Positions 5,972 to 39,180 are shown, counted from the first letter of the stretch. The stretch is 64,000 bases of DNA from Saccharopolyspora erythraea NRRL 2338 (GCF_000062885.1 NC_009142.1:1103584-1167583), one strand, 5' to 3'. Translations and numbers: made by a program. The notes: generated by a model from the letters alone, not told the origin.

Positions 5972-6931
5972 TGTTGCCTCCTCGGTGAGCTGGGCGAACA
6001 GATCCTCCAGACCCGCCCTGCCGCGGCGCGCCTCGTGCACCCCGACCCCGGCGTGCACCAGGGCGGCGATGACCTCCGGCGGGTCGACGTCGGTCAGCTC
6101 GACGCGCAGCCGGCCGTCCTCCTCCCGGGCCGCGATCCCGTGGTCGCGCAACGCGTGCAGGCCGCCTTCGACGTCGGCGGTGGACACCACCAGGTGCGGC
6201 CGGCCCGACTCCAGCAGCTCCCCGAGATCGCCCTGGGCGACCAGCGACCCCCGGGTCATCACCGCGACGTGCGTGCACGTCGCCTCGACCTCGGACAGCA
6301 GGTGCGACGACACCACCACGGTCGTGCCCACCGAGTGCAGGTCGGCGATGATGCGCCGGATCTCCCGCGTCCCGGCGGGATCCAGGCCGTTGGTCGGCTC
6401 GTCGAGCACCACCAGCTCGCGCGGCACCAGCAGCGCGGCGGCCAGCCCCAGGCGCTGCTTCATGCCCAGCGAGTAGCCCTTGTACCGGCGGTGCGCGGCA
6501 GCGGTGAGCCCGACGCGTTCCAGCGCGTCCGCCACGGCGTCCCGAATCCGGCCGGTGGCGAGCGCGGGTTCCACGGCCGCGCAGCGCGTCAGGTTCTCCC
6601 GCCCGGACAGGAAGGGGTGGAAACCGGGACCCTCGACCAGCGCCCCGACGCCGGGCAGCACGTGCGCCGCGCCGTCGGGCATCGGGTGGCCGAGCACTTC
6701 GACCGTGCCCGCCGTCGGCCGGGTCAACCCCAGCAGCATCCGGATGGTGGTCGTCTTCCCGGAACCGTTGGGGCCCAGGACGCCGACGACCGCGCCGCGC
6801 GGGACGGCCAGGTCCACCCCTGCGACGGCGACGGTCTCCCCGTAGGTCTTGCGCAGGCCCGTCGTGCGGGCGGCGAAACCGCCCGCCGGGGCGGCGGCCG
6901 CCACCCCGGCGGACTCGACGACCCCGGTCAT
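5969..6931 (-). CDS. ABC transporter ATP-binding protein (ABC-2 exporter type)
   Basis: MTGVVESAG...GPNGSGKTTTIRML (Walker A), YSLGMKQRLGLA (ABC signature), LVVLDEPTNGLD (Walker B); the ORF-track 575-aa call is an extension through the upstream gene. Confidence 0.85.
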   Translation of the reverse strand: MTGVVESAGVAAAAPAGGFAARTTGLRKTYGETVAVAGVDLAVPRGAVVGVLGPNGSGKTTTIRMLLGLTRPTAGTVEVLGHPMPDGAAHVLPGVGALVEGPGFHPFLSGRENLTRCAAVEPALATGRIRDAVADALERVGLTAAAHRRYKGYSLGMKQRLGLAAALLVPRELVVLDEPTNGLDPAGTREIRRIIADLHSVGTTVVVSSHLLSEVEATCTHVAVMTRGSLVAQGDLGELLESGRPHLVVSTADVEGGLHALRDHGIAAREEDGRLRVELTDVDPPEVIAALVHAGVGVHEARRGRAGLEDLFAQLTEEAT

Positions 6932-7965
6932 CCGAGCGCGGCCGTCAGCACCTGCTCCGGCACCGCGCCCGCGACGGCGCGCCCGTCGGAGGTCACCAGC
7001 GCCGAACCGGCCTTGGTCTCGATGAGCCAGCCCTGGCCCCACGGGCCGCTGACCGGCTTGCCGATCTGCTCGACCACGGCCATCGGGTTGCCCTCGGCGC
7101 CCTCGCCCTTGGGCAGCTCGGTGCGCACGACCATGTCCCAGCCGTCGCCGATGACGGTCGGCTCGGGGTGCTCGGCCTCCGGGCCGGGCTTGCCGTGCGG
7201 CCCGGTCTCCTCCGCCTCGCGCACCTGCGCGCCCGGGGGAGCGGTGAAGCGGAACAGCGCCGGGTCCGGCTGCGCCAGGTCCAGGTTGGAGAAGCCGACG
7301 TGCAGCGCGGGGCTGTCGGAGCCGTTGGTGCCGACCGTGACCGCGAGCGGGATGCGCTTCTCGGCGTCCACGGCGATCCGGACCTCGCGCAGCACGGTCC
7401 GCTCGGTCGGCTTGGGCTTCAGCACCAGCTCGTAGGCGTCGCGGCCGGCGACGCTGGCCGTGCCGTCGACCGACACCTCGCTGGTCTGGCGGACGGCGTC
7501 GATGAGCTGCCGCGACATGGCGGCCGGGTCGGCGGGGGCCTGGTGCTCGGGCTTCGGGGCGCTGTCGTGCGCGGCCCTGGTGACGGTGCGCTCCGCCGAG
7601 TTCCAGTTCCACACGGTGGCGCCGTCGTTGACGATCGTGTTCTCGCCCGCCGGGGACGGCAGTGACACCCGGTGCCTGCCCTGGCCGTCGGCCCACACCT
7701 GGAAGGCGCTGTTGCTCTGCGAGAGCACGGAGGTGCTCGCGTCGTGGCCGGGGATCATCGGCAGGCCCAGCGAGTTGTTCACCTCCACCGTCCCGGACAG
7801 GGCGGGCGGCGCGGCCGTCATCACCGACTCCACCAGCGCCTCCGGCGCGACCGGCGGGAGCACGGGGTCGGCGCCCGCGCCGGTCGGCAGGGCCAGCGCG
7901 GTGAGCCCGGCGACCCCGGCCACCACCCCTGCCGTCGCGGTGAGCGTGACGTGGGTTCGTTTCAT
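6928..7965 (-). CDS. Secreted LolA-like/DUF2092-like protein with signal peptide
   Basis: MKRTHVTLTATAGVVAGVAGLTALALPTGAGA signal peptide; 345 aa; operonic with the ABC-2 exporter; assigned by family-level resemblance only. Confidence 0.5.
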   Translation of the reverse strand: MKRTHVTLTATAGVVAGVAGLTALALPTGAGADPVLPPVAPEALVESVMTAAPPALSGTVEVNNSLGLPMIPGHDASTSVLSQSNSAFQVWADGQGRHRVSLPSPAGENTIVNDGATVWNWNSAERTVTRAAHDSAPKPEHQAPADPAAMSRQLIDAVRQTSEVSVDGTASVAGRDAYELVLKPKPTERTVLREVRIAVDAEKRIPLAVTVGTNGSDSPALHVGFSNLDLAQPDPALFRFTAPPGAQVREAEETGPHGKPGPEAEHPEPTVIGDGWDMVVRTELPKGEGAEGNPMAVVEQIGKPVSGPWGQGWLIETKAGSALVTSDGRAVAGAVPEQVLTAALG

Positions 7966-8812: not shown

Positions 8813-10197
8813 TCAGGCTGCCCCGTCCGCTGCGGTCGTGGTGGTCGCGCCGCACGATCCAGTTCCGGACCAGCGCGGTCGCCACCGTCGTCGCGCTCTG
8901 CGCCCTGGGCGCCATCGCGCACGCGAGCACCGGCTTCGTCGGCTGGCTGCTGCTGGACTCGGTCGACACCGACCTCCAGCGCAGGGCCACGGCGGCGACC
9001 TCGCAACTGGCCTCGGGCGCCGACCCGGCGGCGCTGGTCGGCCCCGACCTGCGGGTGCTCGACGTCGCGGGTACCCCCGTCGACGGTCTGCCAGCACCGG
9101 CGGTCGGCGGTCGCGAGATCGACGACCTGAAGGCGGGCGAGGGCGTCATCGAGCACCGCGACCACGCCGAGTGGCGCCGCTGGGTGGGCGTGGTCGTCCC
9201 CGACCCGCGGGGCGAGCCCCGCCTGGTGCTGGCGGGCACGCCGCTCGTCGGGTACCGCGACACCCTCAGCACCGCGGGGCGCTTCCTCGTCTCCGGCTCG
9301 ATCCTGTCGGCGGCGGCGATCGGCCTGGCCACCTGGATCGTCGTGCGCCGGTCCCTGCGCCCGGTCGAGCGGCTGCGGGTGGCGGCCGGGACGCTGCCGG
9401 AGGGCGAGCGGCTGCCGGTGCCCGAGGCCGACGACGAGCTGCGGGCGCTGGCCGAAGCGCTCAACAGCATGCTCGCCCGCCGCGACGCCGACACCGAGTG
9501 GCTGCGCCGCTTCACCGGCGACGCCGCGCACGAGCTGCGCAACCCCGTCTCGGCGATCCGCGTGCAGGCCGAGGTCGCGGTGGTGCACCCCGATCCGGAG
9601 CAGGCGCAGGAGGCGCTGCAGGAGATCGCCGACGAGACCAAGCGGCTCTCCGACCTGGTGGACGGCCTGCTGGCGCTGGCCCGCGCGGAGCGCGGCAGCC
9701 AGCCGCCGCCGCGACCGGTGGACCTGGTCGCGGCGGTGCGCGCGGCGGCCGACCGGGCCAACATGCGGGGAGCCCGGCCACGGGTCCAGGTCGAGACCTC
9801 GGCGGCGGCGCTGGTGGTCTCCGCCAGCCCTGCCGAGGTGGCCACCGTCCTGGACAACCTGGTCTCCAACGCCCTGCGCTACGCCCGTGCGCTGGTCCGG
9901 GTGTCGCTGCTGCCCGCGGCGGACTCCGTGCGGCTGCTGGTCGACGACGACGGCCCCGGCATCCCCGCCGAACACCGGGCGCAGGTGTTCGACCGCTTCC
10001 ACCGCGTCGAAGCCGACCGGGCCCGCAGCACCGGCGGCAGCGGCCTCGGTCTCGCGCTCGTGGCCGAGGCCGTGCGCCGCCGCGGCGGCACCGTCCGCGC
10101 GGGCGAGTCGCCGGAGGGCGGCGCCCGCATCGAGGCGCGCTGGCCCCTGTCGGGCCCGCTCCTGCCCGCCGTCCGCCGCGACGACGCGCGGCGGTAG
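8809..10197 (+). CDS. Two-component sensor histidine kinase
   Basis: MIRLPRPLRSWWS... with two TM segments, H-box AAHELRNPVSAI, ATPase G-boxes DDDGPGIP and GGSGLGLAL; ATGA overlap with the RR stop. Confidence 0.85.
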   Translation: MIRLPRPLRSWWSRRTIQFRTSAVATVVALCALGAIAHASTGFVGWLLLDSVDTDLQRRATAATSQLASGADPAALVGPDLRVLDVAGTPVDGLPAPAVGGREIDDLKAGEGVIEHRDHAEWRRWVGVVVPDPRGEPRLVLAGTPLVGYRDTLSTAGRFLVSGSILSAAAIGLATWIVVRRSLRPVERLRVAAGTLPEGERLPVPEADDELRALAEALNSMLARRDADTEWLRRFTGDAAHELRNPVSAIRVQAEVAVVHPDPEQAQEALQEIADETKRLSDLVDGLLALARAERGSQPPPRPVDLVAAVRAAADRANMRGARPRVQVETSAAALVVSASPAEVATVLDNLVSNALRYARALVRVSLLPAADSVRLLVDDDGPGIPAEHRAQVFDRFHRVEADRARSTGGSGLGLALVAEAVRRRGGTVRAGESPEGGARIEARWPLSGPLLPAVRRDDARR

Positions 10198-10257
10198 CGG
10201 CGGGGCGGGCGGCCGTAGGGGCGCGGGGGCGGGCGGCGAGTCGGCGGCGGCGCTAGG

Positions 10258-10470
10258 GGCGCGCTGTGAGGCGGCGGCAGGGCACGTGCTGTGGGACGGC
10301 GGTGGCGGACGTGCGGGATGTGGGACGGCGGTGGCGGACGTGCGGGATGTGGGACGGCCGTGACGGTAGTGCGGGCTGTGAGATGGCCGCGGTGGTAGGG
10401 GGCGCGCTGTGGGACGACGGCGGCGGACGTGCGGGCTGGCAGACGGCGGCGGTGGTAGTGCGGGCCGCGC
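10258..10470. repeat. About 7 copies of an imperfect ~29-31 bp tandem repeat (unit GTGGGACGGCGGTGGCGGACGTGCGGGAT; two copies exact)
   Basis: Read directly: 10293-10321 and 10322-10350 are identical, and flanking copies are degenerate. Confidence 0.8.
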
Positions 10471-10621
10471 GGAAGCGGCGGTCATAGGGAGGCGCGCCGT
10501 CCCACGCCGTTCTGCGCACGAGTCGTCGGTGGTCACGCCCGGGCTTCAGCTCTGCACGCCAAGAGCCGTCAGCAGTCGGGCGGCCCGTTCTTCGTTCGCG
10601 CTGTTGGCGTCCTAGTCGGAG

Positions 10622-10742
10622 GCCCCTCCGTCCGTCCACGCCCCCAGTCGTTCCTGGTCGGGTGGGCCTTCCGTCCGTCCACGCCCGAGTCGTTCCTGGT
10701 CGAGTGGGCCTTCGTCCGCCCACGCCCGAGTCGTCGCTGGTG
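10622..10742. repeat. Three copies of an imperfect ~37-38 bp tandem repeat (GGGCCTTCCGTCCGTCCACGCCCGAGTCGTTCCTGGTCG)
   Basis: Read directly in sequence. Confidence 0.75.
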
Positions 10743-12269: not shown

Positions 12270-12590
12270 GCCCAACCCCAAACGGCACTGCCTGTTCCGT
12301 CCCTCGCCGTGAACCGCCGCTTCGGGTTGCCCGCCCGAGCCCGTTGGGTGCCTCGGTTTCCAAGCCGCACTGACCGTCCCTCGCCGTGAACCGCCGCCCC
12401 GGCTTGCTCGCCCGAGCCCGTTGGGTGCCTCGGTTTCCAAGCCGCACTGACCGTCCCTCGCCGTGAACCGCCGCCCCGGCTTGCCCGCCCGACCCCGTTG
12501 GGTCCCCCGGGCTTCCAAACGCCTGGCCCCCGACCCCAACCGCCGGCCCGCTCCGTTCCCCGCCGTGAACCGCCCAGCCCGCCGCCGGAC
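12270..12590. repeat. About 4 copies of a ~77-78 bp tandem direct repeat
   Basis: Unit CGTCCCTCGCCGTGAACCGCCGCCCCGGCTTGCCCGCCCGAGCCCGTTGGGTGCCTCGGTTTCCAAGCCGCACTGAC; two central copies are near-identical and the flanking copies degenerate. Confidence 0.8.
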
Positions 12591-23208: not shown

Positions 23209-24338
23209 CATCGGGGACCGGCCCGGCCGGCCCGTCGGCCGGGCACCGCGGTCCGAGCCTTCCGGACTTCCCGTGGGACTCCCTCGCCGGCCAGAAGGCG
23301 CGGGCCCAGGCGCACCCGGACGGCATCGTCAACCTCTCGGTCGGCACACCGGTCGACCCGGTGCCCGCGCGCCTGCGCGAGGCGCTGGCGTCGGTCGCGG
23401 ACCGTCCCGGGTACCCGGCCACGCACGGCACGCCGGAGCTGCGCGCCGCCGCCGTGGGGTCGCTGGAGCGGCGGTTCGGCATCCGCGGCGTGGACCCGGA
23501 AGCGGTGCTGCCGACCATCGGCTCGAAGGAGCTCGTCGCCTGGCTGCCGATGCTGCTGGGCGTCGGTGAGGGCGACGTCGTCGCGATCCCCGAGCTGGCG
23601 TACCCGACCTACGAGGTCGGCGCGAAGCTGGCGGGCGCGACCGTCGTGCGGCTCGGACCCGACGACCCGCCGCCGCCGGGAACGGCGCTGCTGTGGCTGA
23701 ACTCGCCGTCCAACCCGACCGGACGGGTGCTGGACGCCGACCGGCTGCGCGCCTCGGTGCGCGCGGCGCGCGAGCTGGGCGCGGTGGTGGCCTCCGACGA
23801 GTGCTACCTGTCACTGGGCTGGGACGCCGAGCCCGTGTCGGTGCTGCACCCCTCGGTGACCGAGGACTTCACCGGGTTGCTCGCGGTGCACTCGCTGTCG
23901 AAGTCGTCGAACCTCGCCGGCTACCGGGCCGGCTTCGTCACCGGTGACCCGGCGCTGGTCAAGCGGCTCCTGGAGCTGCGCAAGCACGCGGGCATGATCG
24001 TGCCGAGGCCGGTGCAGGAGGCCGTGACCGCCGCCCTCGACGACGACGAGCACGTGCGCGTGCAGCGCGAGCTGTACGCGGCGCGGCGAGCGGTGCTGCG
24101 ACCCGCGCTGGAGGCCGCGGGCTTCACAGTCGAGCACTCCGAAGCGGGCCTGTACCTGTGGGCCACGCGCGGCGAGCCCGCGTTGGAAACCGTGGACTGG
24201 CTTGCCGAGCGGGGCATCCTGGTCGCCCCGGGCACGTTCTACGGACCCTCCGGTCAGCGGCACGTGCGGATCGCGCTCACCGAATCCGACGAGCGCATCG
24301 ACGCCGCCGCGAAGCGGCTGGGGTCCGCCGCCGCGTAG
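23205..24338 (+). CDS. dapC: N-succinyldiaminopimelate aminotransferase (class I PLP aminotransferase)
   Basis: ATGA overlap with the fdx stop; [17 protein letters not shown]-lysine region; synteny with fdxC as Rv1177-Rv1178. Confidence 0.75.
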
Positions 24339-24384
24339 CGGCTGGGGTCCGCCGCCGCGTAGCGGCTGGGGTCCGCCGCCGCGT
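24313..24384 (+). repeat. Exact 24-bp unit (GCGGCTGGGGTCCGCCGCCGCGTA) repeated 3 times in tandem, the first copy covering the last 8 codons and stop of dapC
   Basis: Read directly: each copy encodes RLGSAAA plus a TAG stop. Confidence 0.85.
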
Positions 24385-24600
24385 AGCGGCGGCAACATGG
24401 CCTTTCGCAGTCGCAGGCGTAGCCACGTCCCAAACCCAGAGCAGCGGAGCTGCGGCAACACCTCTCCGGCCTTTCGTGGTCACAGTCGCACCCACGGCTT
24501 AAACCCGAGAGCTGCGAAGCTGCGGAGTCCGCCGCTTAGCGGCGGCAACATGTCTCTGGCGTTTCGTGGTCGCCGTCGCTGGCGCGGCGGTGCCGCCGCT
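24385..24600. repeat. Degenerate ~100-bp repeat pair with GCCGCCGC/GCGGCGGC palindromes between convergent dapC and CHAD genes
   Basis: AGCGGCGGCAACATGNC...TTTCGNGGTC motif occurs twice; hairpin-forming palindromes. Confidence 0.5.
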
Positions 24601-25616: not shown

Positions 25617-26606
25617 TCAGTCGTTGGCGTGCAGGGCGGCGTTCAGCTCGACCTTGCCGCCGGTGCGCGGCGCGACCTCGACCGCGCCGGTGCTGGAGTT
25701 GCGGCGGAACAGCAGCCCGGTCGAACCCGACAGCTCGCGGGCCTTGGTGATCGTGCCGTCCGGCAGCGTGACCTTGGTGCCCGCCGTGACGTAGAGGCCG
25801 GCCTCCACCACGCAGTCGTCGCCGAGGGAGATGCCCGCGCCGCCGTTGGCGCCGATCAGGCAGCGCTCGCCGACGGAGATGACCTCCTTGCCGCCACCGG
25901 ACAGCGTGCCCATGATCGAGGCGCCGCCGCCGAGGTCGGAGCCGTCGCCCATCACCACGCCGGCCGAGATGCGGCCCTCGACCATGGAGGCGCCCAGCGT
26001 GCCGGCGTTGAAGTTGACGAAGCCCTCGTGCATCACGGTCGTGCCGCTGGCCAGGTGGGCGCCGAGGCGCACCCGGTCGGCGTCGCCGATGCGCACGCCC
26101 GACGGCGCCACGTAGTCGACCATGCGCGGGAACTTGTCGATGCTGTAGACGGTGACCGGTCCGCGGGCGCGCAGCCGCAGGCGGGTCGCCTCGAAGCCTT
26201 CCACCGGGCACGGGCCGTGGTTGGTCCACACGACGTTGGACAGCAGGCCGAACATGCCGTCGAGGTTCTGGCCGTGCGGGCGCACCAGCCGGTGCGACAG
26301 CAGGTGCAGGCGCAGGTAGAGGTCGTGCGCGTCGGCGGGCTCGTCGGACAGCCGGGAGATCTCGGTGCGCACCGCCACGACGTCGACGCCCCGGGCGTCG
26401 TCGCGACCGACCAGCGCAGCGCCGGCCTCGCCGAGCGACTGCGCGGCCTCCTCGGCGGACAGGCGCCGGGTGCCCGACTCCCCGGGCTCGCCGAGCCGGA
26501 CGGTGGGGAACCAGGTGTCCAGCACGGTGCCGTCATCGGTGATGGTGGCCAGGCCGACGCCGTGGGCTCCGGTGGTCTGCGGGTCGGGAGTGAGTGCACT
26601 GCTCAT
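25617..26606 (-). CDS. dapD: 2,3,4,5-tetrahydropyridine-2,6-dicarboxylate N-succinyltransferase (actinobacterial type)
   Basis: Hexapeptide-repeat left-handed beta helix ([38 protein letters not shown]); 329 aa; matches Rv1201c-type DapD. Confidence 0.85.
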
Positions 26607-26756
26607 GGCTGAAAACCGTAATCGGCGCTGGTGACCACTGCTAGCAAGGGTCGCGCGAAGACCGGCCGCAGGCGCCTCGCCGAGCCTCCGGTCGGGGCTT
26701 CACCCGGGGCTCTCACCTGCTGTTTTCCGTGGCGTCCCGGGTGGGTCGGCGGCCCC

Positions 26757-27330
26757 GGGGCGGGCAGTCGGCGGCAGCGGTGTAGGCGGCATCACAGGTC
26801 CGCGGCCGACTGCCGGGTGCGTCGGCCCAGGCTGCCCTGCGGCAGGTGGCACCCGGTGCTGAGGCTGAGGATGGTGTTGCTCGCCGTCCTGAACCGGTAG
26901 ACCGCCCCGAACCCGTCGGTGGCCTCGATCTCGTGGTCGCCGGGACGGTCCACGACCGGCCTGGCGCCCCGAACCCGTAACCGGCGGTGAACCTCGGCAG
27001 CGACCCGGACTGCCTCCGGCCAGCCTCGTCGGGGATGTTCGCCTCGCGGGTCCACCGGTCGAGGGTCCGGCTCTCGGCCTCGGTGACGCCGGGGACTCCG
27101 CGCAACCGGCCCGGCTCGCCTCCCCGTCGTTCACCCACGAGGACACGCCGAGCTCCGCGGCCCGCCGGTCGCGCAGCTCCTGCTGCATCCGGTCGTAGCG
27201 GTCGCCGACCTCCTCGATGGAGGGGCGTTGCCGCAGCGCGGCACCGTCATCGGGCGCGCTCGCACACCCGGCGGCCAGCAGTGCGGTGAGGATCAGCGCT
27301 GCCGAAATGCCTGCCGTCGAACGCGCGTCG
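26757..27330 (-). pseudogene. Decayed tandem paralogue of the downstream lipoprotein gene (multiple frameshifts)
   Basis: Three different frames each match parts of the intact copy: signal/lipobox LTALLAAGCAS, ALRQRPSIEE..., ...VVDRPGDHEIEATDGFGAVYRFRTASNTILSLSTGCHLPQG; DNA-level similarity of 26760-26900 to 27338-27480. Confidence 0.6.
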
Positions 27331-27337
27331 AGGGGGT

Positions 27338-27850
27338 TTATCCGCCCTGTGGCAGGTGGCAGCCGGTGCTGACGGTCAGAAGGGTGTTCTTCGCGGTGCC
27401 GAACAGGTAGCTGGCGCCGTACTGGTCGGTGGCGGTGATCTCGTGGTCACCGGCGCGGTCGACGACGACCTCCACGGCACCGAAGCCGTACTGGGCGGTC
27501 ACCTCGGCGACGATCTCGACCGCCCGCGGCCAGTCGGCGTCGGGGAGATTGCCGGCCGAGCGCCACGACTCCAGCACGCGGGTCTCGCCGCCGAGGTTGG
27601 GGAAGTCCGCGCAGCCCGCGCTGCTCATCGGCTCGCGCGGGGTCCAGTTCAGCGACCCGATCTCGGCGGACAGCCGCTCCCGGACCGCGCGCTGCATCTC
27701 GTCGTAGCGGGCGCTCGCCTCCTCGATGCTCGGCCGCTGCTGGAGGGTCGCGCGCTGGTCTTCCACATCTCCCCCGGGGGTCGTGCCCGGCCGGCCCGCG
27801 CATCCCGCGGCGAGCACGGCGCAAAGCGTGAACAGAACTAGCTTCTTCAT
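27338..27850 (-). CDS. Secreted lipoprotein (LppA-like family), candidate immunity-type protein
   Basis: [19 protein letters not shown] lipobox; 170 aa; start overlaps the stop of the upstream hydrolase gene. Confidence 0.7.
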   Translation of the reverse strand: MKKLVLFTLCAVLAAGCAGRPGTTPGGDVEDQRATLQQRPSIEEASARYDEMQRAVRERLSAEIGSLNWTPREPMSSAGCADFPNLGGETRVLESWRSAGNLPDADWPRAVEIVAEVTAQYGFGAVEVVVDRAGDHEITATDQYGASYLFGTAKNTLLTVSTGCHLPQGG

Positions 27851-29551
27851 CAGAACAGGTCCCGGATCTTCGAGGGTGCCCACGAGATGTAGTCACCGAC
27901 GCCTCGGCCCTCGCCGCGCACAGTGCGGTCGGGCAGGCCGGCGACCACGGCGGCCATGTTGTGCTGGCTGGTGCTGTCGTCGGCGACGTAACCGTTGTGC
28001 CCCGTGGACTCGCTGAGCTTCTGCCGGCCATCGGGTTCGGTGGACTCCTTGGCGGAGAGGTCCTGGACGCCCTCCATGTGCGTGGGGTCTCCGCCGAACC
28101 GGCCGAAGTCGGCGACCGGGTCGTTGCGCGCCTCGATCCGGTAGGTGTGCCCCTCGGGCACGTGGAGGTCCTCGACGTCGTCGGTGCCGACACCTGGCGA
28201 GCCGAAGACGATCGCGTCGTCCACGCCGTGGCCGCCGCCCTGCAACGCGTATCCGGTCGTGGTCGAACCGTAGGAGTGCCCGAGCGCGGTCAGGTGCGGG
28301 TCGGTGTCGCGGGAGGCGTTGATGCCCTTGAAGAACTCGTTCAGCTTCGCGCCGCCGTTCTCAGCGGCGTCGGACCGGGTCACCGAGTTCTCGTGCCACG
28401 GCGCGTGCTCGTGGTCCTGCGGTGTTTCGTAGCCGATCCAGCTGATCGCGGCGACCTGGCCGCCCTCGCCGTGGCGGTCGCTCTCGTGCTGGGACTGCGC
28501 GCGGAGCTGGTTCATCTGGTGGTCGAGACCCTCGAGGGTGCCGTTCACCGTGCTGTTGAGCCCCGGCGTGAACACCGAGACGTGGTCGGCGGTGTCCACG
28601 TCGCCGACCGCCACCGCGGCCTTGAGGCGCTCTCCGCTGGAGTCCAGCACCAGCAGCTGCCTGGACGGCTGCCGTTCCAAGGTCTTCTCGACGGCGCCGA
28701 TCGACTCGATCTTGTGCGTGACCTCCTCGAGCCGCTTGCGCTCGTCGTCGGAGACACCGCCCCGTTCGATCTCGGCCTTCTCGGCGTTGAGCGCTTCGCG
28801 CTCGTCGTCGATGCGGTTGCGGTTGGCCACGTCGCGGACCTGGGCGGGGATGCCGTCGCGGTTGCCGAGCCAGGCGGGCGGGGCCTTGCGCAGGGCCTCC
28901 TGCTCCTCCGGTGACAACGACTTCCACCACTTGGCGTTCTCCTCCGGAGTGCCGTTCCGCGGGGCGTCGATGGTCGCGGCCAGGCCGCGGGAGTCGCCGG
29001 TCGCGGCGTCGTCGGCGAGCGAGCCGCCGCGGCCGGGGTCCATGAGGTTCCTGTCGGCGTCGGCGAGGACCTTCGCCAGCTCGTCGTCCGCCCGGTTGGC
29101 GCGTTGGAGGACCGTGCGGATGTTCTCCACGATCTGGTCGCGGATGCGGATGCGCTCCTGCTTGACCTGTTCGACCTGGTCCTCGGGCACGTCGTCGGGC
29201 GGTGCGACGTCGCGGACGCCGCCCTCGGCGGTGATCTCGAAGCCGTGGCCCTCGGCCAGGTCGTCGGACTCGCGGAGCAACCGGCGGATCGCCTCCACCT
29301 CGTCCGTGGTTTCCGCGACCGCGCGGCGGACCCCCGCCACCTCGACCACCAGCTCACGCATCACCCGCGTCAGTCCCGCGTGGCTCTGCGCCGCGGCGTC
29401 GGCGGCCTGGCCGCGCCACCCCTCGGGCCGCGCGGAGCCCTCGAGCTCGTCGTCGAGGCCGACCAGCCGGTCCTTGTGCTTGCCGAGGGCGGCGAAGACC
29501 TTCTCCAGCGCGTCCGGCTCCCACCTGCGGACGTCGGAAAGCGACACCATC
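27850..29551 (-). CDS. WXG100-like N-terminal domain fused to C-terminal alpha/beta hydrolase (DUF1023/Abhydrolase_8-like), candidate secreted effector
   Basis: Start [22 protein letters not shown]; WXG-like motif [14 protein letters not shown] at ~residue 55; nucleophile elbow [11 protein letters not shown]; no signal peptide; the ORF-track start at 29679 is an extension. Confidence 0.65.
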
Positions 29552-29864
29552 AGCCGGCCTGCTCCTTCATGTCCGCGGCGATGCGGCCGAAGGCGTCGGC
29601 ACCGGCCTGCTCGTTGCGTCCGTACTCCGCGGCGGCCGAGTCCAGGGCCGCGCCGTGGTCGCCCGCGCCGCGGCTCCACGCCCGGATGGTCTCGCTCCAG
29701 CTCCGCGACACGCGGTCCGCGGCCTGCGCGGACCGGCCGCCGGGCAGCGCGGCGGCCAGGTCGGTCGCGGCGGAGCCGAGGTCGGTCCCGGCGGCCTGGT
29801 CACCGGCGGACTTCGCCTTCGCGGCGGCCTGGCGAAGGGTCTGCGTGGCGGCTTCGTAGCTCAC
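29550..29864 (-). CDS. Small alpha-helical protein (~104 aa), putative partner of the WXG-hydrolase
   Basis: GTG start; [26 protein letters not shown]...[18 protein letters not shown]...; overlaps the downstream gene start by 2 nt. Confidence 0.5.
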
Positions 29865-29920
29865 TGCCCACCTCCGGCGGGCAGGCTATCCCGATCAAGT
29901 GGCTCGGGAGGGGCGATTCG

Positions 29921-31030
29921 GTGAATACGGGTAGCCTGCCCGACGTGACCGCCGAGCTGAACCTCACCGCAGATCCCGTCGAGCTCACCGCCGCCCTGGT
30001 GGACATCCCGAGCGTCTCGGGCGACGAGAAGCTCATCGCCGACGCCGTCGAGCACGCGCTTCGCGAGCAGGCACCGCACCTGGAGGTCATCCGCAACGGC
30101 GAGGCCGTGCTGGCCAGGACGAACCTCGGCCGCGGCTCCCGGGTGGTGCTCGCCGGTCACCTGGACACCGTGCCGGTCAACGACAACCTGCCGTCGCACC
30201 GCAGCGGCTCGGGCGACGACGAGCTGCTCCACGGCTGCGGCACCACCGACATGAAGGGCGGCGACGCGGTGATGCTCGGCATCGCCGCCGGGCTCACCGA
30301 CCCGCGCCACGACCTGACCTTCCTGTTCTACGACTGCGAGGAGGTCGAGGCCGAGCGCAACGGCCTGAACCGCATCGAGCGGGAGCTGCCGGAATGGCTC
30401 GACGGCGACCTCGCGGTGGTCCTGGAGCCGTCGAACGCGGCGATCGAGGCCGGGTGCCAGGGCACGCTGCGGGTCGAGGTCCGCACCGAGGGCGCGCGGG
30501 CGCACACGGCGCGGGCGTGGATGGGCGAGAACGCCATCCACGCGGCGCAGCCGATCCTCAAGCGCCTCGTCGACTACACGCCGAGGCAGCCCACGATCGA
30601 CGGCCTGCACTTCCACGAGGGGCTGCAGGCGGTGCGGATCGCCGGTGGCGTCGCGGGCAACGTCGTCCCGGACAGCTGCGTGGTGACGGTGAACCACCGC
30701 TTCGCCCCGGACCGCTCCCTGGCCGAGGCGGAGGCGCACGTGCGGGAGGTCTTCGACGGCTTCGAGGTGACCCTGACCGACGGGTCGCAGGGCGCGCTGC
30801 CGGGGCTCACGGCCCCCGCGGCGGCGGAACTGGTCGCGGCGTCCGGTCAGGCGCCGGTGGCGAAGCTGGGGTGGACCGACGTCGCGCGGTTCGCAGCGCG
30901 CGGGCTGCCCGCGGTGAACTTCGGCCCTGGCTCCCCGACGCTGGCCCACACGCAGCAGGAACACGTGCCTGTGTCGCAGATCCGCCACTGCGCCCAGGCC
31001 CTGCGCCGCTTCCTCAGCCAGGAGGGCTGA
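29921..31030 (+). CDS. dapE: Succinyl-diaminopimelate desuccinylase (M20 family)
   Basis: GHLDTVP, DMKGG, His/Glu zinc ligands typical of the M20 family; ~369 aa from a GTG start; divergent from dapD as in M. tuberculosis Rv1201c/Rv1202, but here separated by the insertion. Confidence 0.8.
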
Positions 31031-38941: not shown

Positions 38942-39066
38942 TATCGCCGCCCGCGCCGGCCGCTAGGGCCGCCCGGTCGCGCCGGTCCGCCACTGAGCGC
39001 CCCCCGCTGCCCGCCCGCGCCGGCCGCTAGGGCCGCCCGGTCGCGCCGGTCCGCCACTGAGCGCCC
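38942..39066. repeat. Exact ~62-bp direct repeat x2 (plus degenerate third copy to ~39130) between convergent tag and echA
   Basis: CTGCCCGCCCGCGCCGGCCGCTAGGGCCGCCCGGTCGCGCCGGTCCGCCACTGAGCGCCCCCCG occurs twice in tandem. Confidence 0.8.
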
Positions 39067-39180
39067 CCCGCTGCCCGCCCGCGCCGGGCGCAAAGCCGCT
39101 GTCCCGCCGCCCCCGCCGCCACACCGCCCCCGCCGCCGCGCCGGTCCGCTGCGCGCGGAACGGCGCGGCCGGCTCGCGGC

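Follow-up and report, generated by a model that had tools for sequence, protein, structure and literature searches.

Among the described systems closest to the locus analyzed here is the Eat locus of mycobacteria, in which the Tap helical partners TapA1/A2 accompany an ESX-4-secreted GH183 toxin, EatA, that carries a helical N-domain, and in which a downstream gene encodes the lipoprotein inhibitor EatI (Benedict et al. 2026, PMC13444075). In a survey of Eat-like loci, alpha/beta hydrolases are the commonest predicted payload, and lipoprotein immunities go with toxins whose action is extracellular (PMC13444075). A second system is TslA of Staphylococcus aureus, a type VII-secreted lipase; the TilA (DUF576) lipoproteins that neutralize it come from multi-copy gene arrays that vary in size (Garrett et al. 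2023, PMC10730906). The present locus is a cassette of Saccharopolyspora erythraea NRRL 2338 that encodes a hydrolase with an Abhydrolase_8 domain, a small helical partner, and two lipoproteins of the LppA family, one intact (LppA1) and one decayed (psi-LppA2). It was found in a 64,000-nucleotide (nt) stretch of the chromosome (GCF_000062885.1, NC_009142.1:1103584-1167583), hereafter the window, and positions are counted from the first letter of that stretch.

All features of the four-gene cassette lie on the minus strand at a site between dapE (plus strand) and dapD (minus strand). The first operon gene (29550-29864) encodes a helical protein of 104 amino acids (aa) with the C-terminal motif YGRNE (YxxxE), and its stop overlaps the start of the hydrolase gene (TGATG). 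The hydrolase (27850-29550) has 566 aa, a length also called in other assemblies, is 100% identical to a protein recorded at NCBI for S. erythraea NRRL 2338, and combines an N-terminal long-helix domain resembling WXG100 proteins with a C-terminal Abhydrolase_8 domain (PF06259, formerly DUF1023). Next comes LppA1 (27338-27850), with 1 nt shared between its start and the stop of the hydrolase gene, and then psi-LppA2, the pseudogene of a second LppA paralogue, which occupies about 26792-27341. Its former coding region runs from 27341 to 26822, and the last frame now continues to a stop at 26794-26792. The stop/start junctions overlap throughout the operon, and the four genes are translationally coupled. 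A scan of 26400-30200 for promoters and terminators returned nothing above background, and an Rfam scan of the window found no RNA families.

LppA1, seen as an intact open reading frame (ORF) when positions 26400-28300 were read and their ORFs listed, is a 170-aa protein that matches Pfam PF16708 (the LppA family) with an E value of 4.2e-50 (170.1 bits, against a gathering cut-off of 26.4). NCBIfam holds no family for it. Its N-terminus is a typical lipoprotein signal peptide with a lipobox cysteine, and it carries two family-invariant cysteines, C80 and C164. The translation of psi-LppA2, once its frame is repaired, also matches PF16708 (E=3.9e-33, 115 bits), and this copy retains the lipobox LLAAG-C yet has no start codon. 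The initial annotation had described an intact gene at 27338-27850 with a lipobox signal peptide, followed directly by a second copy split over three frames that kept the lipobox LLAAGC, and all of these features are evident in the ORF and in the three-frame translation.

The likeness to Eat, which is found in the same phylum, lies in the order of the genes: one or more small helical partners come first, a protein that joins a helical N-domain to a C-terminal enzyme follows, and a small lipoprotein closes the series. The payload differs, being Abhydrolase_8 in the S. erythraea cassette and GH183 in Eat, and the cassette has a single partner gene where Eat has two. Furthermore, EatI has been described as a new fold, whereas the model of LppA matched only PDB entries 2v7s and 4mjg. 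Secretion, toxicity, and inhibition have been demonstrated for Eat, whereas for the S. erythraea cassette they are predicted. TslA, an alpha/beta-fold type VII lipase that acts outside the cell and is neutralized 1:1 by a lipoprotein, resembles what we predict for the S. erythraea hydrolase, and the tilA genes, which are multi-copy, non-identical, variable in number, and situated beside the toxin domain, can be likened to the LppA pair. However, TslA belongs to a Firmicute type VIIb secretion system (T7SSb) and has the reverse domain order, with the lipase at its N-terminus, and TilA (DUF576) is unrelated to LppA. The tilA arrays are also large (one USA300 mutant was made by deleting 18 chromosomal tilA-related genes; PMC10730906) compared with two LppA copies. 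By its layout, the cassette belongs to a recently described kind of locus. The pseudogene psi-LppA2 is in itself ordinary. A further likeness is to the type VI Tle phospholipase effectors, which pair with periplasmic or lipoprotein Tli immunity proteins and which join, as the S. erythraea cassette would on our reading, an envelope-attacking hydrolase to an immunity protein outside the cytoplasm.

The enzymatic part of the hydrolase matches PF06259 with an E value of 1.2e-41, and in an alignment of 46 sequences the nucleophile elbow GHSYGS (Ser426), D477, and H518 are all invariant. With its catalytic residues intact, this C-terminal domain has a ratio of nonsynonymous to synonymous substitution rates (dN/dS) of 0.20, calculated, like the other ratios given below, by the Nei-Gojobori method against the corresponding locus of CP054839, a genome deposited as S. 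erythraea. In the N-terminal part, the same alignment shows that W45 of the WxG motif is invariant and that G47 is present in at least 90% of sequences. An AlphaFold2 model of the protein (mean predicted local distance difference test score of 88.5) contains helices at residues 12-38, 48-101, and 123-166 in addition to the alpha/beta-hydrolase core, and it places a long helical hairpin at the N-terminus.

The composite signal for type VII secretion consists of a YxxxD/E motif on one helical partner and a WxG motif on the other. In most related loci, a homologue of the 104-aa protein is encoded immediately ahead of the hydrolase, and Tyr81 is invariant and followed at position +4 by Asp or Glu in all 15 of the 15 aligned homologues (YxxxD/E). 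The protein has no match in Pfam or NCBIfam. We read the 104-aa protein as a predicted Tap/Lap-like partner for type VII export and the hydrolase as an effector predicted to be secreted by this route. A published table credits S. erythraea NRRL 2338 with two ESX clusters (PMC4791881).

The association between the hydrolase and LppA extends well beyond this species. We scanned genomes with an LppA alignment, keeping one genome per species, and examined the upstream genes of the resulting 23 loci by tblastn; S. erythraea itself, both of whose genomes (the window and CP054839) carry two copies, stands outside this set. Of the 22 loci that include upstream DNA, 21 have a WxG/Abhydrolase_8 gene immediately upstream and in the same orientation. 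Across Actinomycetota, the LppA gene is almost always directly downstream of an Abhydrolase_8-type hydrolase. A single LppA copy with the upstream hydrolase is present in 13 of the 23 loci, among them those of S. taberi, S. cebuensis, and Rhodococcus. Two copies are found in eight, representing six Saccharopolyspora species, Kibdelosporangium, and an Actinokineospora metagenome-assembled genome (MAG). The remaining loci are an orphan LppA without a hydrolase (L023) and one that is cut at a contig end (L026). The orphan (L023:6950-7537) belongs to Prauserella shujinwangii, which also has one full cassette (L029), and it is adjoined by a divergently oriented gene for a LacI-like regulator. The LppA locus of M. 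litorale has no annotated hydrolase neighbor, and because the Pfam data for those contigs are sparse, it was counted neither way.

An exhaustive search for the LppA family yielded 425 cluster representatives, many of them from soil Pseudonocardiaceae. PF16708 proteins are present in Saccharopolyspora, Kibdelosporangium, Actinokineospora, Prauserella, Rhodococcus, and soil MAGs. The Pfam description of the family as confined to pathogenic Mycobacterium does not hold; this is a flaw of the description and not a criterion of membership. A signal peptide is missing in some LppA-domain genes, for example in copy two of L009 and L011-L015 and in the LppA genes of S. cebuensis, L024, and L025.

Several variants of the family were also observed. 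In the six Saccharopolyspora species with two copies (L009 and L011-L015, region ~6570-7460), the second copy is a protein of 149-151 aa that starts at the mature domain and has no signal peptide or lipobox, a state conserved in all six, and an ORF of ~120 aa with four predicted hydrophobic helices lies between the LppA copies. The second copy in the Actinokineospora MAG (L021:7500-8183) is disrupted, with its signal peptide and first helix in one frame that ends in a stop and the rest in another. This may represent either independent decay or a MAG assembly error. Among metagenomic proteins, P0155 (701 aa) is a single ORF that fuses a WxG/Abhydrolase_8 protein to an LppA domain with its internal signal peptide kept, and P0010 (313 aa) is a tandem fusion of two LppA domains.

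These observations can be combined into a model for the function of the cassette. An ESX/type VII system would export the hydrolase by way of a composite secretion signal, to which the hydrolase would contribute WxG and its partner YxxxD/E. From outside the cytoplasm, the hydrolase would then attack an ester-linked component of the envelope. LppA1, tethered on the outer face of the membrane as a putative immunity or inhibitor lipoprotein, would bind and inhibit the hydrolase, and thereby protect the producer and its kin. The former LppA2 might once have covered a variant toxin as a second immunity specificity, or it might have given redundant cover, and it would have been lost when it became dispensable. 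We lean slightly toward this toxin-immunity mechanism, and we consider the broader account, an operon with a hydrolase effector, LppA1 as its immunity protein, and a dead, older LppA2, to be probably the best explanation of the locus as a whole. The initial annotation had likened the pair to an immunity-gene array. The comparison is a reasonable one in that the pair directly follows a WxG-helical/Abhydrolase_8 gene in a cassette built like the toxin-immunity loci of type VII systems (PMC13444075, PMC10730906), while the role itself is one that we infer for LppA from gene order and analogy.

That dependence on context and analogy is the first of several points that weigh against assigning an immunity function. 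The N-terminus of the hydrolase matches the WXG100 models weakly and below their curated thresholds (PF06013, E=0.018; TIGR03930, E=3.8e-4). When the whole model of the hydrolase was compared with the PDB by Foldseek, the matches were limited to alpha/beta hydrolases of a generic kind (FrsA, dienelactone hydrolase, esterases, lipases, peptidases, and DPP-IV), with template modeling scores below 0.6. Likewise, no known immunity protein fold was among the PDB matches of the LppA model. The LppA array at this locus has two copies, far below the size of classic immunity islands, and the cassette sits at a fixed chromosomal site. Finally, purely extracytoplasmic immunity does not simply explain the LppA genes without signal peptides.

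Some of the same points favor the strongest alternative, in which LppA works together with a secreted esterase of housekeeping function, serving as a membrane anchor, as a substrate-presenting or lipid-binding factor, or as an activator in envelope remodeling, and in which the second copy was lost as redundant. Tight linkage would suit any obligate partnership equally, and the Saccharopolyspora cassette is fixed between dapE and dapD rather than carried on a mobile island. The purifying selection on the hydrolase domain (dN/dS of 0.20) and the existence of LppA copies without a signal peptide are also in keeping with such a role. However, type VII toxin-immunity loci are defined by such an arrangement, in which a WxG helical domain has a small YxxxD/E partner upstream and the enzymatic domain is directly followed by a small gene (PMC13444075, PMC10730906). 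A simple partnership also accords less well with a copy number that varies from one to two, with the existence of an orphan LppA gene, with the diversifying selection and recombination of lppA/lppB in Mycobacterium tuberculosis, and with a synonymous divergence (dS) of 0.17-0.31 in the cassette compared with 0.07 in the flanking dapD. On balance, we regard the working-partner role as unlikely.

The toxin-immunity model can be carried over to M. tuberculosis, where the LppA family has its structurally solved member. LppA1 shares the fold of that protein, M. tuberculosis LppA (PDB 2v7s), which was reached by a profile of 85 sequences (E=1.4e-7) and by fold searches; a search of the PDB chains with the single LppA1 sequence gave nothing significant. 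In the M. tuberculosis complex, a 104-aa ORF with a YxxxD motif is followed by a PF06259 gene, LppA, and LppB. Like the S. erythraea pair, Rv2543 and Rv2544 (LppA and LppB) are lipoproteins in which the two structural cysteines are conserved, and they are tandem paralogues that immediately follow a PF06259 hydrolase gene with the 104-aa YxxxD ORF ahead of it. Their sequence identity to the S. erythraea LppA is ~17-19%. The pattern of decay differs between the two lineages, in that the second lipoprotein copy is dead in S. erythraea whereas in the M. tuberculosis complex the apparent damage, a split, affects the hydrolase gene. In the locus examined there (CP010333, L031:3951-5772), the WxG-bearing helical domain (…GGTDWEGQAAARAH…) is out of frame with the 403-aa PF06259 ORF. 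Thus, the hydrolase gene of the complex looks split or frameshifted, with both lipoprotein genes kept.

LppA and LppB are usually read as pathogen-specific antigens. In many Actinomycetota, the genomic context described here couples their structurally solved family (2v7s) with one particular enzyme, Abhydrolase_8/DUF1023. It is possible, though somewhat doubtful, that the whole LppA family, LppA and LppB included, is a dedicated immunity or inhibitor family for a widespread class of ESX-secreted Abhydrolase_8 toxins that attack the envelope in Actinomycetota. The differential decay, with an immunity copy lost in NRRL 2338 and a toxin gene split in the M. tuberculosis complex, would then record shifting interbacterial warfare. 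If so, this would provide a testable function for M. tuberculosis LppA/LppB and for Rv2541-Rv2542, and S. erythraea would offer a non-pathogenic, genetically tractable model for an ESX-delivered hydrolase toxin and its lipoprotein inhibitor. The genes lppA and lppB are hotspots of recombination and diversifying selection in M. tuberculosis (PMC4770551). Our literature searches on DUF1023, Abhydrolase_8, PF16708, and Rv2542 found no functional study, and, with the supplementary survey tables of PMC13444075 outside the search, they found no paper tying LppA/PF16708 to Abhydrolase_8 or to immunity.

The history of the two S. erythraea copies can be traced through CP054839, which has the same gene order as the window and in which both lipoprotein genes are intact and overlap at ATGA. 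There, a homology search with the repaired translation of psi-LppA2 identified its intact orthologue, a 173-aa protein (P0001) encoded at L007:6001-6522. The DNA of LppA1 and psi-LppA2 aligns by blastn (27728-27344 versus 27219-26834) with 68.7% identity over 399 nt (E=1e-34), and, judged from this alignment, their similarity is far beyond chance. The initial annotation had noted this similarity and attributed it to a recent duplication. The similarity stands, although the block that matches 27344-27480 is ~26834-26970 and not 26760-26900, as had been proposed. The recent date does not stand. Because each copy has its own orthologue in CP054839, the duplication is, on the strength of this comparison, older than the split between the NRRL 2338 and CP054839 lineages. 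What is recent, as far as the two genomes allow it to be traced, is only the inactivation, which followed the divergence from the CP054839 lineage with its two intact copies.

It could be argued that two adjacent copies that still align at the DNA level arose by a recent tandem duplication, after which the new copy decayed rapidly. Yet the paralogues share just 68.7% of their nucleotides and 53-55% of their amino acids, whereas the orthologues in the two genomes share 89% (LppA1, amino acids) and 91% (psi-LppA2, nucleotides). In a neighbor-joining tree, the pair of LppA1 orthologues and the pair of LppA2 orthologues each have 100% bootstrap support. In addition, Kibdelosporangium, Actinokineospora, and six further Saccharopolyspora species have two copies as well. 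A recent duplication is therefore very improbable, and the orthologous pairs in CP054839 led us to reject it. For dating the duplication relative to S. taberi and other species, the same tree is uninformative, with bootstrap values of 10-18% at the deep nodes. Between the two S. erythraea genomes (window positions 25617-29864 versus L007), dS is 0.17-0.31 for the cassette, 0.10 for psi-LppA2, and 0.074 for dapD. The excess of the cassette over dapD gives a hint of faster turnover there or of recombination.

The decay itself is extensive. Immediately 3′ of the TAA stop of LppA1, the homologous segments of psi-LppA2 are spread over all three frames. Three-frame translation places ...LILTALLAAGCASAPDDGAALRQRPSIEE...RAGCAE (in a longer reading, ...LILTALLAAGCASAPDDGAALRQRPSIEEVGDRYDRMQQELRDR...SRAGCAE) in frame 1, GVTEAESRTLDRWTREANIPDE and TAGYGFGAP in frame 0, and WPEAVRVAAEV and VVDRPGDHEIEATDGFGAVYRFRTASNTILSLSTGCHLPQG in frame 2. 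We mapped the lesions, all on the minus strand, by aligning the CP054839 locus with the window (91.1% identity over 516 aligned nt). The start codon at 27339-27341 has changed from ATG to ATA, and the same G-to-A change converts the LppA1 stop from TGA to TAA, the junction being ATGA in the orthologue. The first frameshift is a 1-nt deletion at codon 82 (27096-27098, ~27097; GGACTTCCCC to GGA-GTCCCC), and the second is a 1-nt deletion at codon 107 (27024-27026, ~27025; GAGCGCTGG to GAG-GCTGG). A 1-nt insertion at codon 118 (26991; GAGG-TCA to GAGGTTCA) produces the third, and a 1-nt deletion at codon 127 (26964-26966, ~26965; GGGGCACCCAGG to GGGGCG-CCAGG) the fourth. Lastly, the original stop at 26822-26824 has changed from TGA to CGA, which permits read-through to the stop at 26792. 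The two sequences also differ by two in-frame 3-nt indels. The initial annotation had inferred inactivation by at least two frameshifts. The disruption of the frame is real and the inactivation is upheld by comparison with the intact orthologue, but the count was understated, because four 1-nt indels are accompanied by the loss of both start and stop.

Substitution rates tell a similar story. The dN/dS of psi-LppA2 is 0.87, and by this measure psi-LppA2 evolves near neutrally. LppA1 has a value of 0.29, and the hydrolase domain and dapD have values of 0.20 and 0.19, respectively. The 746 nt from the LppA1 stop to dapD are 100% identical in four independent assemblies, which comprise GCA_039524575.1 from NCBI and Logan assemblies of three different runs (SRR18429453, SRR2508733, and SRR25755706). 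With disabling lesions relative to an intact orthologue, relaxed constraint, and the same sequence in four assemblies, psi-LppA2 has the properties of a unitary pseudogene. It is almost certainly a true pseudogene and not an assembly artifact. One consideration on the other side is that the four assemblies may share one type strain, in which case their agreement excludes sequencing error but not a mutation in a laboratory lineage.

High-GC actinomycete genomes are prone to indel errors, and gene callers return fragments of 87 or 53 aa here, depending on the assembly. The frameshifts might thus have been introduced by sequencing or assembly, with the organism truly having two intact paralogues. 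This would demand the same errors in separate runs across a region of 746 nt, and none of the four frameshifting indels sits in a long homopolymer. Moreover, separate point mutations abolish the start codon and the stop, the flanking genes are all intact, and dN/dS is 0.87. We consider such an origin extremely improbable. Programmed ribosomal frameshifting or another form of recoding, by which the split frames would yield a functional protein, has nothing to recommend it beyond the existence of the frame changes, and it can practically be dismissed, as the ribosome would have to shift four times, with mixed sign (-1, -1, +1, -1), where there are no slippery heptamers, in a gene whose start codon is gone and whose orthologue is a plain single-frame gene.

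As a pseudogene, psi-LppA2 represents routine genome decay, and it matters mainly for annotation. Public gene calls inside it include "LppA" ORFs of 87 aa or 53 aa (window 26792-27055; L001, 4703-4966; L002, 6898-7059). These are fragments of a single dead gene and should be annotated as such.

Elsewhere in the window, several repeats were observed. A near-perfect tandem repeat of 24 nt (3.7 copies, 98% identity) occupies 24302-24390, where it is placed at the 3′ end of a dapC-like aminotransferase ORF and extends into the intergenic region before a CHAD-domain gene. Other tandem repeats have units of 77 nt (12297-12518; 2.9 copies, 93%) and 64 nt (38947-39091; 2.3 copies, 98%), and a complex GC-rich repeat cluster with periods of 29, 42, and 89 nt spans 10188-10741.

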